Sequence record: OR992647.1
Origin: Escherichia phage ST-T-K
Reading direction: 5' to 3' (one strand)
Length of the DNA: 28,657 nucleotides
Shown here: one piece after another, positions 20,173 to 24,670 of the stretch
How positions within the stretch are numbered: the first letter of the stretch is position 1
How the letters are laid out: each line of letters opens with the position of its first letter
The notes under the pieces: model-generated
Database searches by the model: none
What the model was told of the DNA's origin: nothing
The model's input: only the letters and a program-made list of their open reading frames with translations
Position numbers and translations under genes: made by a program

Positions 20173-22815
20173 TCATCGTTTGTATAGTACTCCACCCGGT
20201 TTCGTCGCTTTCACGATCTCGGCCTTGACCGACTCGGTGATTTGCTTTCCAAACGCCTGCGCGGTGCGTGGGTCCGGTCCGCTCACACTGGTGTCCGTCT
20301 TACCGGTCCCAGTGTAAACGTTGGTCGTTACAATCATCCCACCCCCTGCACCGGCAGCGGCAACGCCCAGTTTTCCATCCGGCCCGCGCTTAAGTGGCAT
20401 GATAGCCTCGGGTCCAGCCTCACCCATCAATCCAGCGCCCTTAGCGAACGCCTGAACGCCATAACTGAAAAAGGTGGGCTGGCTTACCACTTGACCGGAA
20501 TAGGCCGCGAGATTGCCTCCTGCGTACGCTCCGCCGTCTGCGTTCTTAGTGAGGCCCGAGAAGATAGCGCCGAACAATCCGTTTTTGCCGCCGTCACCGC
20601 CGAAAGCGCTAACGATGGATTTGAACGCCTGCGAGGTAGCCAGCTTGATTAATTCGCTCAGGATGGACTTAACCATATCCTTTGCGTTCAGCTTGCCTGT
20701 CTCGAAAAACTCGTTCATCGTGTCCTGCATAGCGCCGAACGTGAATTTTGTGAGTGACGTCATCTGCGTGTAGCCGTTCCCCATTTCATCCACGCTATCC
20801 TTAAGCCCGCGGCTGAAGCCATCCCACAACGAAGCGTTAGCACCGGTCTGTGCTTCCTGCACTTCGCGCAGCTTAGACACCGCGTTGTCAATATCAGTAT
20901 CGTTAGCGCCGACACGCTGAAGGCGGTCAATTAGCTGCAATTCTTCGCGCAGGTTAGCCGCTTCGCGAGTGGAAAGCGCATAGCCCGCGGCGGTGGCCCG
21001 TAGCTCGGCGTTCTGGTTCTTGATGAATGCCTCGACCTGGGCGTGTGCCTTGATCTGCTTCTCTTTCGCGTCCAGCAATTTGGCTTCTTCGACGATCTGC
21101 TCGCGTACCGCTTTAACCGCCTCGAACTCTGCCATTTGCTGCTTTTCTGCTGCCGTTAGTGTGCGTTCCTTGCTTGCTGCGACCATTTGCTCATTATCCG
21201 CCACCAGCTTATTCAACGCGGCCTGTGCGCGCTGCGTGCGGGTCTGCGTTGTGGCATTGGCTTCGATCTGCTTGCCGGACTCCTTAAGCTGTGCCAGTTC
21301 GCTCCGTGCGACCTCCAGCATTTTAACACCGGCATCGACGCGAATTGCCGCCGCCTTTTTCGGTGCGGGGTCTTTGTAGCGCTCGTTTACCTGCTTCACC
21401 GCCTCGGCTAGTTCTTTCTCGTTAATCACACCGCGCTTATTCAGTAAATTGAGGCGGGCGATCTCGTCGGCGCGCTTCTTCGCGTTGGTGGCAAATTCCT
21501 TCTCGAACGCGGCGCGGTCGCGGGCGGTGCGGTTGGCCTCCTCGTTCGCCTTCGCTGATTTGTCCGCAGCGCTGGCGTTGTCGCGCTCGGCACGGTTACG
21601 CAGGGTGAGCGACGCTACTACTTTTTCCTGTGCGACCAGTTCGCTATAAAGCATGTTAATACGTGCTTTCTGCGCGTCGGTCATTACCCCACCGGCAGCG
21701 TTTACCGCTTTCATCTCAGCATAGTAAGCCGTGGTCATGCGCTGCAATGACTCACGCGCTTTCATCTCGGACTCATTCGAGGACTGCGCGCGGCCCACAT
21801 CCAGGATGGCATCCCACATAGATTTAGCTGCCGATGTGACGACGTTCATCGATCGCTCAAGCGTACCCATGTTGGACTTGATCTCGTTGGTCATGCTGGT
21901 GAACGACGCCGCGGCTGTTTTGTTAGCCAGCGCCACCGCTTCGGTTTCGCGACCCGTCGTAACCAGTGACTGCACCTGCTGGATCTGCGCCTCGGTAACG
22001 ACGTGATACTTGTCCGCCAGTGCGCGCAGTCCGCCTACCGGGTCGTTGGACAATTTAGAGATAGACTCCACCACGTCCGCGATCGGCTGATTAGACACCT
22101 TCGCGAAGTCGTTCACCACTTTCGCCAGCGCGCCGAAGTCAGCACCAGCTTTAACACCTGCCGCCGCCAGCGCCTGAATTGTGTCACGCGTCTTGCTGAA
22201 TGATCCGCCCATGCGTTCGGCGTTCTCCGACAGCACCAGGATCTGGTTAGCGGTGAGGCCGGAGATGTTACCGGATAGCGCCAGCGTCTTATTCAGCGCC
22301 GCTACCTGGTTTTCTGCACGGGACGTAATTGCCACGCCTACGCCCAACGTTGCCGTTACCGCAGCAAGGCCGATCCCTACCGGACCGAGAAAGCCTGCAA
22401 CATAACGCAGCGTGTTACCCAGTCCGCCGAACGCCCCAGTTAACTGCGGTAACTGCTGAAGCATAACGCGGTGCACCGGCATACCCATCTCAAGCGTCAC
22501 CGCAATATCCTGTAACTGGAATGCGGCGTTGCGTGAGGCAAAGCCCAGGTTTTTGGTAGACATGCCTAAGCGGTTGGCAAGTCGCTCCTGTTTCGTCATG
22601 CCATCGGCGGCGCGCTGTGATTCAGTCGCTAACTTCCCCATTCCGCCCGCGGCGTCACTCGTCACCTTTTTCGAGTTGCCGAGGGTGTCGTTTAATTTCT
22701 TAACCTTGTTTTCGGTGTTCTCGGACTTCTGCGCGAATGAGTCCAGCACCGTATTCGCCGTTCTGATTTGTGCAACATCCGCCTTTAGCGTGATGCCTGC
22801 TGCTTGATCTGCCAT
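20173..22815 (-). CDS. tail tape measure protein
   Basis: 880 aa, Ala/Gln/Lys-rich predicted coiled coil with a Gly-rich hydrophobic C-terminal region; located between chaperone G/T and the distal tail genes; RBS GGGGA before ATG at 22815. Confidence 0.85.
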   Translation of the reverse strand: MADQAAGITLKADVAQIRTANTVLDSFAQKSENTENKVKKLNDTLGNSKKVTSDAAGGMGKLATESQRAADGMTKQERLANRLGMSTKNLGFASRNAAFQLQDIAVTLEMGMPVHRVMLQQLPQLTGAFGGLGNTLRYVAGFLGPVGIGLAAVTATLGVGVAITSRAENQVAALNKTLALSGNISGLTANQILVLSENAERMGGSFSKTRDTIQALAAAGVKAGADFGALAKVVNDFAKVSNQPIADVVESISKLSNDPVGGLRALADKYHVVTEAQIQQVQSLVTTGRETEAVALANKTAAASFTSMTNEIKSNMGTLERSMNVVTSAAKSMWDAILDVGRAQSSNESEMKARESLQRMTTAYYAEMKAVNAAGGVMTDAQKARINMLYSELVAQEKVVASLTLRNRAERDNASAADKSAKANEEANRTARDRAAFEKEFATNAKKRADEIARLNLLNKRGVINEKELAEAVKQVNERYKDPAPKKAAAIRVDAGVKMLEVARSELAQLKESGKQIEANATTQTRTQRAQAALNKLVADNEQMVAASKERTLTAAEKQQMAEFEAVKAVREQIVEEAKLLDAKEKQIKAHAQVEAFIKNQNAELRATAAGYALSTREAANLREELQLIDRLQRVGANDTDIDNAVSKLREVQEAQTGANASLWDGFSRGLKDSVDEMGNGYTQMTSLTKFTFGAMQDTMNEFFETGKLNAKDMVKSILSELIKLATSQAFKSIVSAFGGDGGKNGLFGAIFSGLTKNADGGAYAGGNLAAYSGQVVSQPTFFSYGVQAFAKGAGLMGEAGPEAIMPLKRGPDGKLGVAAAGAGGGMIVTTNVYTGTGKTDTSVSGPDPRTAQAFGKQITESVKAEIVKATKPGGVLYKR

Positions 22816-22890
22816 TATGCAGTCCCCTTTTTTATGCAGTTGCCGATTGACATTGTATCAGCGAATTTGAAACAAACCTTATTCAGTCTC

Positions 22891-22918
22891 AGACGAGGGG
22901 GGCCGTTAACCCCCGTCT
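22891..22918 (-). other. GC-rich hairpin without U-tract upstream of the tape measure gene
   Basis: Left arm agacg-a-ggggg (22891-22900) pairs with right arm cccccgtct (22910-22918), with one bulged A. Confidence 0.4.
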
Positions 22919-22936
22919 AGTCTGAAAGACTGGGAG

Positions 22937-23196
22937 TTGTCCCGCCTGTCCCGATCGGCTGAAACCCGCGGCAGCACTGACGGGGACGGGGTGCTGTCCC
23001 GCTTTGTCCCGCCCCTTGTTTGTCCCGCTTTTGTCCCGTTTGTTTTATGCACGAAATCTGAATAGGTATGCACCTTTTGGAGGTGGGACGGATCGGGACG
23101 TCCCGCTTGTCCCGCTTTGAGTTTATGCAATGAAAGTGAGTAGGTATGCAGTTTTACAGGGGCGGGACAAAACGGGACGTCCCGCTTGTCCCGCTT
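22937..23196. repeat. non-coding iteron array with palindromes and a ~79 bp tandem duplication
   Basis: At least 10 direct copies of (T)GTCCCGC between 22938 and 23194; two perfect palindromes GGGACGTCCC at 23095-23104 and 23174-23183; perfect 24-bp direct repeat CGGGACGTCCCGCTTGTCCCGCTT at 23094-23117 and 23173-23196; TAGGTATGCA at 23063-23072 and 23141-23150. Confidence 0.75.
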
Positions 23197-23198
23197 CA

Positions 23199-23522
23199 TT
23201 ATGCGGGGTTTTGCTGCGCCATTTCATCAAGCGCGATTCGTTCCATTAGCTTTATATCTTTAAATGCACGTTGCTCGTTTTCGATGCCATGCATCTTAAA
23301 CAGCCACCCCAGCACGCCGTAGTCAATGCCGTATGCGCCACCGAATCCGGTGCGCCATTGCGTAGCGCAATCCGTGAATACTGCGACTATCTTCGCGTTG
23401 TCGGGCCATAGCGCAACAGGCGGACAAACATCTTCGGGGGCCGCACCCCATAAACTTGAGGCCAAATCTTCGGAGGGTGGCGGCGGGCCATAAAAGCGTC
23501 GCGCCGCCTCAATTAGTTTTTT
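23199..23522 (-). CDS. T-frame extension of the tail assembly chaperone (G-T fusion via -1 frameshift)
   Basis: The -1 frame is open from the slippery site to the stop at 23199-23201; lambda-like G/G-T arrangement upstream of the tape measure gene. Confidence 0.6.
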   Translation of the reverse strand, partial: KKLIEAARRFYGPPPPSEDLASSLWGAAPEDVCPPVALWPDNAKIVAVFTDCATQWRTGFGGAYGIDYGVLGWLFKMHGIENEQRAFKDIKLMERIALDEMAQQNPA

Positions 23523-23875
23523 TCACGCAATCCCATCAGTTCGAGATAGTACGACGTATGAAACACGCCGAACGCACGGGGGTAGTTGACTACCAGGCGG
23601 CGGACGTTCTCCGCGTTAAATTGGTCTGGCAGATTCCAGCCTTCAGCGACGTGCATGATGGCCTCAACCATAACGTTAAAGCCGTCCGGGTCATTGTCGT
23701 CATATTCCGACAGCTTGCGTTCGGTGTCCTGCATGGTCTGCGAAAACTCGTCGATCGGGCGGTGGCGGACGGTAAAGGTCATCTTGCCCGGCTCGTTCTC
23801 ACCAGGGCGCGGGATCTCAATCGGCAGCTTAAAGGTCGGCTTAGGGTCAAGTGTGAAGAGTGGTGCTTTAGCCAT
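23513..23875 (-). CDS. tail assembly chaperone, lambda gpG-like
   Basis: 120 aa from ATG at 23875 (RBS GGAGAA); acidic protein between major tail and tape measure genes; ends at the slippery site. Confidence 0.75.
   Translation of the reverse strand: MAKAPLFTLDPKPTFKLPIEIPRPGENEPGKMTFTVRHRPIDEFSQTMQDTERKLSEYDDNDPDGFNVMVEAIMHVAEGWNLPDQFNAENVRRLVVNYPRAFGVFHTSYYLELMGLREKN
23516..23522 (-). other. programmed -1 frameshift slippery heptamer A-AAA-AAC
   Basis: Minus-strand mRNA reads GAA AAA AAC TAA at the end of G; a downstream stem GGCGGCG / CGCCGCC starts 8 nt after the heptamer. Confidence 0.55.
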
Positions 23876-23891
23876 TGTAATATTCTCCAAT

Positions 23892-23914
23892 AAAAAAGGG
23901 GCCGTTCTGGCCCC
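23892..23914 (-). terminator. rho-independent terminator after the major tail protein gene
   Basis: On the minus strand, stem GGGGCC / GGCCCC (23898-23914) followed by TTTTTT (23897-23892), immediately before the G RBS. Confidence 0.7.
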
Positions 23915-23944: not shown

Positions 23945-24670
23945 TCAAGACAATGCCTCGACCAGATCCTTACGGTAGATAACCATATCAGACTGCATGG
24001 TCAGAGTGGATTGTACCGTTTCCACGTTGTTTACTTCAGCGGACGGAATCTTCTGGAAAGATACCTTAGCCGGGTAAATACGGATTTCACCTTTGCCGCT
24101 TGCTGCCGCTGGGTTAGTGAACTTAATCACAGTGGTTTTCTGTGTGTCGTCCAGGTCTTCCAGGATAGGGCGGATCGGGTCTTCTTCGTCGTGGGTGAAG
24201 GTGTAAGTCTGGACCAACGGGTTTTTCGTGGTGTTCAGACTGATCGCGGTGTTCACCTGCAACGGCTGGAAGGTAGTCGTCTGCTGGTCGCCACCCGACA
24301 CGGCAACGTTAGTGATAAACGGGAAGTCGATAAAGCTCGACACCTTCACCACTTCACCCGGCGTTCCAACCGCAAAAGCGCCGGTAGGGTATTTGGTGAC
24401 GTCTTCGGTGTCGAAGCGCGCCAGCGTCACGTCGTTAGTCTCCACTTTACCCACGATGAACGCGCGGTTAAGGGCACGGACCCACGGGGTTTTGGTGAAC
24501 ATTACCACGTCACCAACTGCCAGACCGTGAGAAGCCGCGCAGGTAATAACGCAACCAGTGGTAAGGTCGGAGATTGACGCGGTGGCGTTGGTAGCTGCCG
24601 TAACCGCGATGCCTGCGCCTAATACGGACCCAATCTGGACGCTGGACCCGTTAGGAAGTTGATAACCCAT
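23945..24670 (-). CDS. major tail protein
   Basis: 241 aa; RBS AGGAG 7 nt before ATG at 24670; position upstream of G/G-T; followed by a strong terminator. Confidence 0.7.
   Translation of the reverse strand: MGYQLPNGSSVQIGSVLGAGIAVTAATNATASISDLTTGCVITCAASHGLAVGDVVMFTKTPWVRALNRAFIVGKVETNDVTLARFDTEDVTKYPTGAFAVGTPGEVVKVSSFIDFPFITNVAVSGGDQQTTTFQPLQVNTAISLNTTKNPLVQTYTFTHDEEDPIRPILEDLDDTQKTTVIKFTNPAAASGKGEIRIYPAKVSFQKIPSAEVNNVETVQSTLTMQSDMVIYRKDLVEALS

Follow-up and report, generated by a model that had tools for sequence, protein, structure and literature searches.

In a stretch of 28,657 nucleotides from Escherichia phage ST-T-K (sequence record OR992647.1), referred to here as the window, a short tail gene, G, is followed by a second open frame, T, which lies in the -1 frame relative to G. 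The question raised by this arrangement is whether the two frames are joined by a programmed -1 ribosomal frameshift, so that G is accompanied by a G-T fusion, or whether T is expressed in some other way. An earlier reading, made from the sequence alone, had identified the region as an instance of the conserved G/G-T frameshift of long-tailed phages. That identification is supported in the present work by the protein families to which the two parts belong, by the order of the genes around them, by a slippery heptamer in the correct phase, by the coding signal of the -1 frame and by the lack of a start codon for T. Judged from the sequence, a ribosomal -1 frameshift at A_AAA_AAC very probably produces G-T. 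The mechanism is a textbook one which is already known; what is missing is its annotation in the genus Dhillonvirus.

Organization of the slip site

All of the genes in the G/T part of the window lie on the minus strand, and the junction, read 5' to 3' on that strand, is ...TTG CGT GAA AAA AAC TAA TTGA GGCGGCG CGACGCTTTTATGGCC CGCCGCC ACC.... The sequence-only reading had described the end of G as GAA AAA AAC TAA, containing the heptamer A_AAA_AAC in place of the G_GGA_AAG of lambda, and both the codons and the position of the heptamer are borne out to the base (Table 1). From the first A of the heptamer the -1 frame runs AAA AAA CTA ATT GAG... and remains open for 107 sense codons, which agrees with the earlier estimate of about 106. 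The overlap between G and the -1 frame is exactly 7 nt, namely the heptamer itself, which has the form X_XXY_YYZ in the correct phase. Because a -1-frame TGA stands on the 5' side of the heptamer and the G stop stands on its 3' side, a -1 shift can yield a long product only if it takes place within these seven bases. The A tract at the slip site comprises seven consecutive A (23523..23517).

Table 1. Coordinates of the proposed frameshift signal, of G and T, and of the neighbouring tail genes in the window
Feature	Position	Strand	Details
Shine-Dalgarno GGAG of G	23885..23888	-	9 nt upstream of the ATG; read from sequence
Gene G, tail assembly (tape measure) chaperone, 120 aa, 13.96 kDa	23513..23875	-	ATG 23875..23873; PF08748, PHROG 569
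-1-frame stop TGA directly 5' of the heptamer	23523..23525	-	confines productive shifting to the heptamer
Slippery heptamer A_AAA_AAC	23516..23522	-	P site Lys119 AAA, A site Asn120 AAC; read from sequence
G stop TAA	23515..23513	-	adjoins the 3' end of the heptamer
Candidate stimulatory hairpin	23479..23508	-	arms GGCGGCG 23508..23502 and CGCCGCC 23485..23479; 16-nt loop; 7-nt spacer
T extension, -1 frame, 105 codons	23199..23516	-	CTA 23516..23514 to GCA, then stop TAA 23201..23199; PF08809, PHROG 680
Major tail (tube) protein gene, upstream of G	23945..24670	-	PF08813, E = 1.9e-32; PHROG 584
Tape measure protein gene, 880 aa, downstream of T	20173..22815	-	PF06791 TMP_2, E = 7.6e-44, and PF09718

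Gene families and the tail module

G matches the Pfam family Phage_TAC_4 over its full length (E = 3.7e-23) and is thus assigned to a recognised family of tail assembly chaperones; its start agrees with the N-terminus MAKAPLF of homologues which are also 120 aa long. When an AlphaFold model of G (pLDDT 86) was compared with BFVD, the best matches were “tape measure chaperone” proteins of Scapp, Ec_L1 and Solomon, together with eiAU Gp15, and the lengths of the Scapp and Solomon entries (236 and 210 aa) fit those of G-T fusion products. The T extension matches DUF1799 (E = 1.2e-19), and the predicted fusion of the two parts would have 225 aa and a mass of 25.55 kDa. In the PHROG profile 17368, of 213 positions, the first half corresponds to G and the last third to T; since both parts are covered, the profile probably has fused G-T proteins as members.

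The order of the genes on the minus strand is major tail protein, G, T and tape measure protein, with a repeat-rich gap of 384 nt between T and the tape measure gene. The genes for the tail terminator and the major capsid protein lie upstream in the same module, and the region after the tape measure gene gives Pfam matches to Phage_min_tail, Phage_tail_L, Prok-JAB/NlpC-P60 and the GpJ tip domains, which are families of the minor tail and tip proteins of lambda.

Genus and existing annotation

The 1.2-kb region containing G and T is 93-96% identical at the nucleotide level to the corresponding region in more than 150 Dhillonvirus phage records (HK578/SO-1-like), which include HK578, SSL-2009a, JL1, EP23, Sodalis phage SO-1, rolling and CS16, and each of the 157 Dhillonvirus records aligns with at least 80% of the query. 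The window is assigned to Dhillonvirus on this basis. A search of complete E. coli genomes with the region gave no match, and the region is therefore not a prophage there.

Of 60 GenBank records of Dhillonvirus taken from across the ranking, none contains a joined G-T coding sequence, and in many records of the genus the T region is filled by two or three short “hypothetical proteins”. PGAP has annotated the homologues in HK639-like prophages as a “phage tail assembly chaperone” and a separate “DUF1799 domain-containing protein”. In two phages, Scapp of Serratia and Sweeny of Klebsiella, the homologues have already been annotated as frameshift coding sequences joined across the two frames, and for Stevie and U136B, which are T1-like, a frameshift is mentioned; in the literature searched on Dhillonvirus or HK578 and frameshifting, we found no description of this slip site in the genus. 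The published proteome of the phage EE09, the one Dhillonvirus proteome found, reports no T peptides; it was searched against annotated coding sequences only, with no G-T entry in the database, and peptides from T or from the junction could not appear in it. In the table of that proteome, the row for the chaperone carries inconsistent size data.

Conservation of the proposed shift among relatives

A word-indexed protein search yields few relatives of this region (2 matches, then 11). A tblastn search in which the conceptual G-T fusion served as the query matched 1159 phage records, and in almost all of the distant records listed, G and T were returned as two pieces in different frames. A first comparison was based on 113 loci, consisting of the window and 112 relatives (annotated relatives and 80 IMG/VR loci), in each of which G, its stop and the T frame were located. 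T lies in the -1 frame at 109 of the 113 loci, down to about 30% amino acid identity, and A_AAA_AAC abuts the G stop at 103 of them, including relatives with protein identities of 30-47%. Among the loci compared are those of T1, the Tls-like phage YSP2, the Rtp-like phage MM01, HK639 and Aeromonas phage pAEv1818, all with protein identities of 30-43%. Variant sites occur at a handful of loci: the heptamer is placed 9 nt ahead of the stop in Serratia phage ZDD2 (one locus), G_GGA_AAC is found instead at two loci (Pseudomonas phage D14P and a Ralstonia phage), and an A_AAG or A_AAA tetramer occupies the homologous Lys codon at four (Scapp, Sweeny, C119 and Re28-1). A further set of 80 T1-like loci contains A_AAA_AAC with the stop in 65 cases and the -1 arrangement in about 75. 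Given the recurrence of the heptamer in 103/113 and 65/80 loci, the heptamer and the -1 arrangement are beyond chance.

The form of the conservation is also informative about the kind of slippage which the site would support. In the T1-like loci the four-fold-degenerate codon which precedes the heptamer always ends in A (GTA, GCA or ACA), and the X position of the heptamer is therefore held. The length of the A run, in contrast, changes from seven in the window to six in T1/Tls/Rtp-like phages, and the phages with G_GGA_AAC have no long homopolymer at all. What is conserved is the phased pattern X_XXY_YYZ and not the run length, which argues for tandem tRNA slippage over stuttering by the polymerase. 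A Shine-Dalgarno-like upstream stimulator was also considered as an element of the signal and was rejected, because a conserved Gly codon located 8-12 nt before the heptamer freely takes any of the four bases as its third base (GGA, GGG, GGT, GGC) across clades.

Coding signal and start codon of T

In the aligned fusions, conservation at the protein level extends from the first residue after the slip: L121 is invariant, and it is followed by the pattern ..A(A/V)..Y.P.P..EL. The coding pattern was counted over 19-21 distinct Dhillonvirus sequences. The variable columns number 11, 6 and 76 at the first, second and third codon positions of G, and 25, 10 and 72 at those of the -1 frame. For the 18 codons that separate the slip site from the earliest possible initiator, the corresponding numbers are 4, 0 and 8, and the changes are nearly all synonymous. 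That possible initiator, TTG 23465, is replaced by TTA in 16 of 19 distinct Dhillonvirus relatives, no Shine-Dalgarno sequence was seen before it on reading the sequence, and the next ATG or GTG in the T frame occurs only some 70 codons in.

An exhaustive HMMER search with T alone as the query gave 938 T-family representatives, and no in-frame G-T fusion is present among the best 150 of these 938, all of which are 38-150 aa long with ragged N-termini. From the conservation, the coding pattern, the loss of the TTG and the absence of fused representatives, it follows that the two-frame arrangement is maintained by selection and that T is without a start of its own. T has no conserved start codon.

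The downstream hairpin

The sequence-only reading had proposed, as part of the signal, a GGCGGCG/CGCCGCC stem downstream of the heptamer. A stem of this sequence is found at the place given, and begins at the eighth nucleotide after the heptamer. Folding of the 48 nt that follow the heptamer gives an extended structure with a free energy of -17.1 kcal/mol. A comparison of the hairpin with dinucleotide shuffles over 91 nt is uninformative (z = -0.10), and a comparison of the MFE of the 48 nt with those of synonymous recodings in the T frame gives p = 0.145. Taken alone, the stem is not beyond chance, and much of it is present because Ala-Ala ... Pro-Pro-Pro is encoded in GC-rich codons.

The picture given by the relatives differs from clade to clade. 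In T1/Tls-like relatives, the hairpin found at this spacing (GGGCGGTTT/AAACCGCC) is more stable than the recodings (p = 0.002-0.01). In other clades the hairpin is no better than synonymous recoding, with p up to 0.9, and in several Drexlerviridae the heptamer is kept and the stem is lost. No covariation of the outer stem was detected by RNAalifold in 30 T1-like sequences, for which the consensus comprised 3 bp only, and after this result the proposal of a stimulator conserved across the whole family was dropped.

Within Dhillonvirus, the sites in and around the stem are nearly frozen. None of the five synonymous stem sites varies in the 19-21 sequences, against 68% of the third positions in the T frame (naive P about 0.004). 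Over the 16 codons which extend from Arg117 to where the 3' arm ends, 2 of 16 third positions vary, against 69% overall, with a permutation p = 0.0006 which is optimistic, the sequences being related; these codons form the least variable synonymous stretch in the 225 codons of G-T among 21 distinct Dhillonvirus sequences. The proposed role of the stem in the signal is therefore borne out in part: the stem exists and its sites are frozen in Dhillonvirus, but it is not above the recodings and is not family-wide. These observations weakly suggest that the stem acts as a frameshift stimulator. At most, the hairpin is plausibly a clade-specific enhancer rather than a defining part of the signal.

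Alternative explanations

Explanations in which no frameshift is programmed have to account for the two frames in other ways. The simplest is that the arrangement is an artefact, produced by a sequencing indel or a decaying gene, and that a single uninterrupted ORF is the true gene; indel errors classically arise in homopolymer tracts, and a few contigs do differ by one A. The same -1 arrangement is present, however, in 109/113 and about 75/80 loci, which were sequenced independently, on many platforms and from many clades, and the uniform match of the Dhillonvirus records and the absence of fusions among the best 150 T-family representatives also stand against this explanation, which is barely credible. 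Alternatively, T could be a separate gene with its own start, for which TTG 23465 and the ATT used in the record of SO-1 are examples; a frameshift would then be unnecessary. This is how most GenBank and PGAP records treat it, since they annotate a distinct downstream ORF (“DUF1799 domain-containing protein” or “hypothetical protein”), and the list of open reading frames of the window does contain an 88-aa ORF which opens with that TTG (23199..23465). Yet the TTG is mostly TTA in the relatives, has no Shine-Dalgarno sequence that could be seen and is far removed from the next ATG or GTG, while the 18 codons before it evolve as coding sequence and are conserved as protein across families. The starts that have been annotated are also inconsistent with one another, as are the ragged N-termini of the T-family representatives, and a separate T gene is accordingly most improbable.

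Two further explanations do give rise to a G-T product, and differ from tandem slippage by the ribosome in how the frame is changed. In transcriptional slippage, RNA polymerase would add one A on the A7 tract, giving a subset of mRNAs in which G and T are in frame and a protein with the junction ...REKK-LIEA.... The tract does consist of seven consecutive A, one inserted A does bring T into frame, and the in-frame exceptions among the relatives are one-base homopolymer variants: the IMG/VR contigs L033 and L034 carry A8, and HCF1 has one A fewer, from which the tract appears prone to length error at some step, be it copying by a polymerase or sequencing. The RNA polymerase of E. coli, on the other hand, needs runs of about nine or more to slip efficiently, and only A6 is found in T1/Tls/Rtp-like phages and no long homopolymer in the Pseudomonas and Ralstonia relatives with G_GGA_AAC. 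The A8 and A5 cases are moreover single contigs, one of them (HCF1) from a record flagged UNVERIFIED_ASMBLY, and are probably homopolymer errors, which leaves transcriptional slippage very unlikely. Somewhat less unlikely, but still improbable, is a termination-coupled slip of a single tRNA (a “shifty stop”), in which the P-site Asn-tRNA would move from AAC to AAA while a slow stop occupied the A site, giving the same protein product as tandem slippage. The stop codon does directly adjoin the heptamer in 103/105 and 65/80 loci. A single-tRNA slip has no need, however, of the full X_XXY_YYZ, which is kept down to the wobble A of the preceding four-fold-degenerate codon. In ZDD2, furthermore, the heptamer is 9 nt from the stop, and in the A_AAG-type relatives one sense codon lies between the Lys codon and the stop; adjacency of the stop is therefore not required. 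Tandem slippage of two tRNAs on the heptamer is the reading which is followed below.

Comparison with known systems

The best-known system of this kind is lambda gpG/gpGT, for which a -1 frameshift has been described (Levin, Hendrix & Casjens 1993; Xu, Hendrix & Duda 2004, as cited in PMC5313236 and PMC5009743). The locus in the window resembles it in the position of the genes, between those for the major tail protein and the tape measure protein and ahead of a lambda-like tail module, and in the proposed production of a short chaperone together with a rarer, C-terminally extended form, the ribosome slipping by -1 on an X_XXY_YYZ close to where G ends. It differs from lambda in that the heptamer is A_AAA_AAC and adjoins the G stop, where lambda has G_GGA_AAG, in the repeat-rich gap which separates T from the tape measure gene, and in the protein families: G belongs here to Phage_TAC_4 and T to DUF1799, which in Pfam are not the families of lambda G and T.

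The T1-like Drexlerviridae (T1, Tls/YSP2, Rtp-like phages, the Webervirus Sweeny and Stevie), HK639, Scapp and pAEv1818 are true homologues, with 30-43% amino acid identity over G and T. Most of this group share A_AAA_AAC and the stop at the homologous codon, and T1/Tls-like members share the spacing of the hairpin. In contrast, the tract is A7 (GAA AAA AAC) in Dhillonvirus and A6 in T1, the stem sequence and loop differ, and the gap between T and the tape measure gene is about 35-40 nt in the T1-like group, against 384 nt in the window.

The insA-insB' junction of IS1 carries the identical heptamer, functions in the same host, E. coli, and also gives rise to a rare fusion protein; it is a proven case of low-level -1 frameshifting, without an established stimulator in the account of Escoubas et al. 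1991 as cited in PMC4066793. The gene and its function (a transposase) are unrelated to those considered here, and the comparison bears only on whether the heptamer works in E. coli. Among phages of a different host, Acinetobacter phages Loki (gp12/gp13) and IME_AB3 have been discussed in PMC5313236, where an AAAAAAC beside the chaperone stop codon of Loki is pointed out, and it is through this description of the slip site that Loki resembles ST-T-K.

Proposed mechanism

That slippage takes place at this site is inferred, as are its efficiency, the part played by the hairpin and the binding partners of the products. In the proposed scheme, ribosomes would begin translation at the ATG of G, and most of them would terminate at its TAA and release the 120-aa G protein. 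With the Lys codon AAA in the P site and the Asn codon AAC in the A site, a small fraction would slip by one base in the 5' direction, with both tRNAs re-pairing on AAA AAA. Decoding after the slip would continue with CUA AUU GAG... for 105 more codons, giving the 225-aa G-T. Tandem slippage would retain Asn120, so that the predicted junction is ...LREKN-LIEAARR... and not ...REKK-L, and the hairpin, 7 nt downstream, may raise the frequency of slippage, the heptamer by itself being a weak site in E. coli.

In E. coli, A_AAA_AAC promotes frameshifting with low efficiency, yet it is the proven -1 site of IS1, and it is common in IS elements which need a rare fusion (PMC4066793). A weak heptamer fits the low ratio of G-T to G known from lambda. 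For HK97-like chaperone genes, 6-7% frameshifting has been measured (PMC3711429).

The roles of the two products can be proposed by analogy with lambda, in which, besides the mechanism of G/GT, the partners have been described, namely the tape measure protein for G and the major tail protein for T (PMC5009743). By this analogy the G part, common to both products, would attach to the tape measure protein; T (DUF1799), the rare part, would bring in the major tail protein so that polymerization of the tube starts on the tape measure, and neither G nor G-T would remain in the virion. A more ambitious proposal is that the abutting stop and the clade-specific hairpin together form a tuned, termination-coupled stimulator of a poor heptamer and, in addition, that DUF1799 is never a free protein and exists only as the T domain of a fusion; this combined proposal is unlikely.

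Significance

The feature is an ordinary one for long-tailed phages and implies no new biology. Its value lies mainly in annotation: once the shift is recognised, the locus can be credited with its correct 225-aa product, DUF1799 can be assigned the part of a T domain, and false ORFs can be removed. These corrections are relevant to phage engineering, to the databases used in proteomics searches and to studies of the defence systems which sense tail chaperones.

The gap between T and the tape measure gene

The interval from the T stop to the tape measure start is much longer in the window, at 384 nt, than in the T1 and HK639 relatives, where only about 35-40 nt lie at this junction. In the record of the Dhillonvirus SO-1 the gap is labelled "region A" and resembles a "region B" that comes after the helicase/primase gene. 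The gap is rich in repeats: it contains at least nine copies of GCGGGAC(A/G), a motif which occurs 11 times in the whole window against 3.3 expected, as well as two long direct repeats with a spacing of 78-79 nt and two copies of the palindrome CGGGACGTCCCG. The gap may serve as an array for regulator binding or as an origin-like element.

The 97-aa ORF within the repeats is probably spurious, to judge from its sequence, because it had no match in searches of Pfam and PHROG and because its protein sequence, with KRDKRD and KAGQ repeats, simply mirrors the underlying DNA repeats. The published infected-cell proteome table of the Dhillonvirus EE09 lists CDS21, "tape measure chaperone", with two peptides and as "103 aa, 11.0 kDa", a size that fits EE09_18, the homologue of the 97-aa ORF, and not G (120 aa, 14.0 kDa). 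This mismatch is either an error in the table or else a sign that the repeat-region ORF is translated.

Features in and around the G-T region, with one prophage homologue
Feature	Coordinates	Strand	Remarks
Non-coding gap	22816-23198		384 nt; T stop to tape measure start
97-aa ORF	22906-23199	-	within repeat region
Antisense ORF, 145 aa	23456-23893	+	opposite G
Antisense ORF, 111 aa	23586-23921	+	opposite G
Terminator-like hairpin	23898-23914	-	GGGGCCAGAACGGCCCC then T6; between major tail protein gene and G
E. coli prophage homologue	NZ_CP010170.1 2820960-2821603		example

Features flanking and opposite G

A terminator is annotated in HK639, Scapp and CS16 at the same place as the window's terminator-like hairpin, which probably reduces transcription of the chaperone and tape measure genes relative to that of the tube protein. 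The two antisense ORFs are typical shadow ORFs of GC-rich coding sequence, and the ORF listing of the window gave no evidence that either is a gene.

The A tract and the annotation of T

In a few of the related loci the A tract at the slip site differs by one base: it is A8 near position 919 in two IMG/VR contigs (L033 and L034), which places G-T in a single frame, and it is one base shorter in Citrobacter phage HCF1 (L025/L035), whose record bears the flag UNVERIFIED_ASMBLY. These differences are probably homopolymer sequencing errors, though they could be natural variants.

T is entered by PGAP and by most depositors, for the E. coli prophage homologues and in Dhillonvirus GenBank records, either as a stand-alone "DUF1799 domain-containing protein" or split into several short hypothetical ORFs; the ORFs annotated in the T region are of 51 and 31 aa in Bas83 and of 51 and 38 aa in EE09. 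DUF1799 appears to be the T domain of a G-T fusion.
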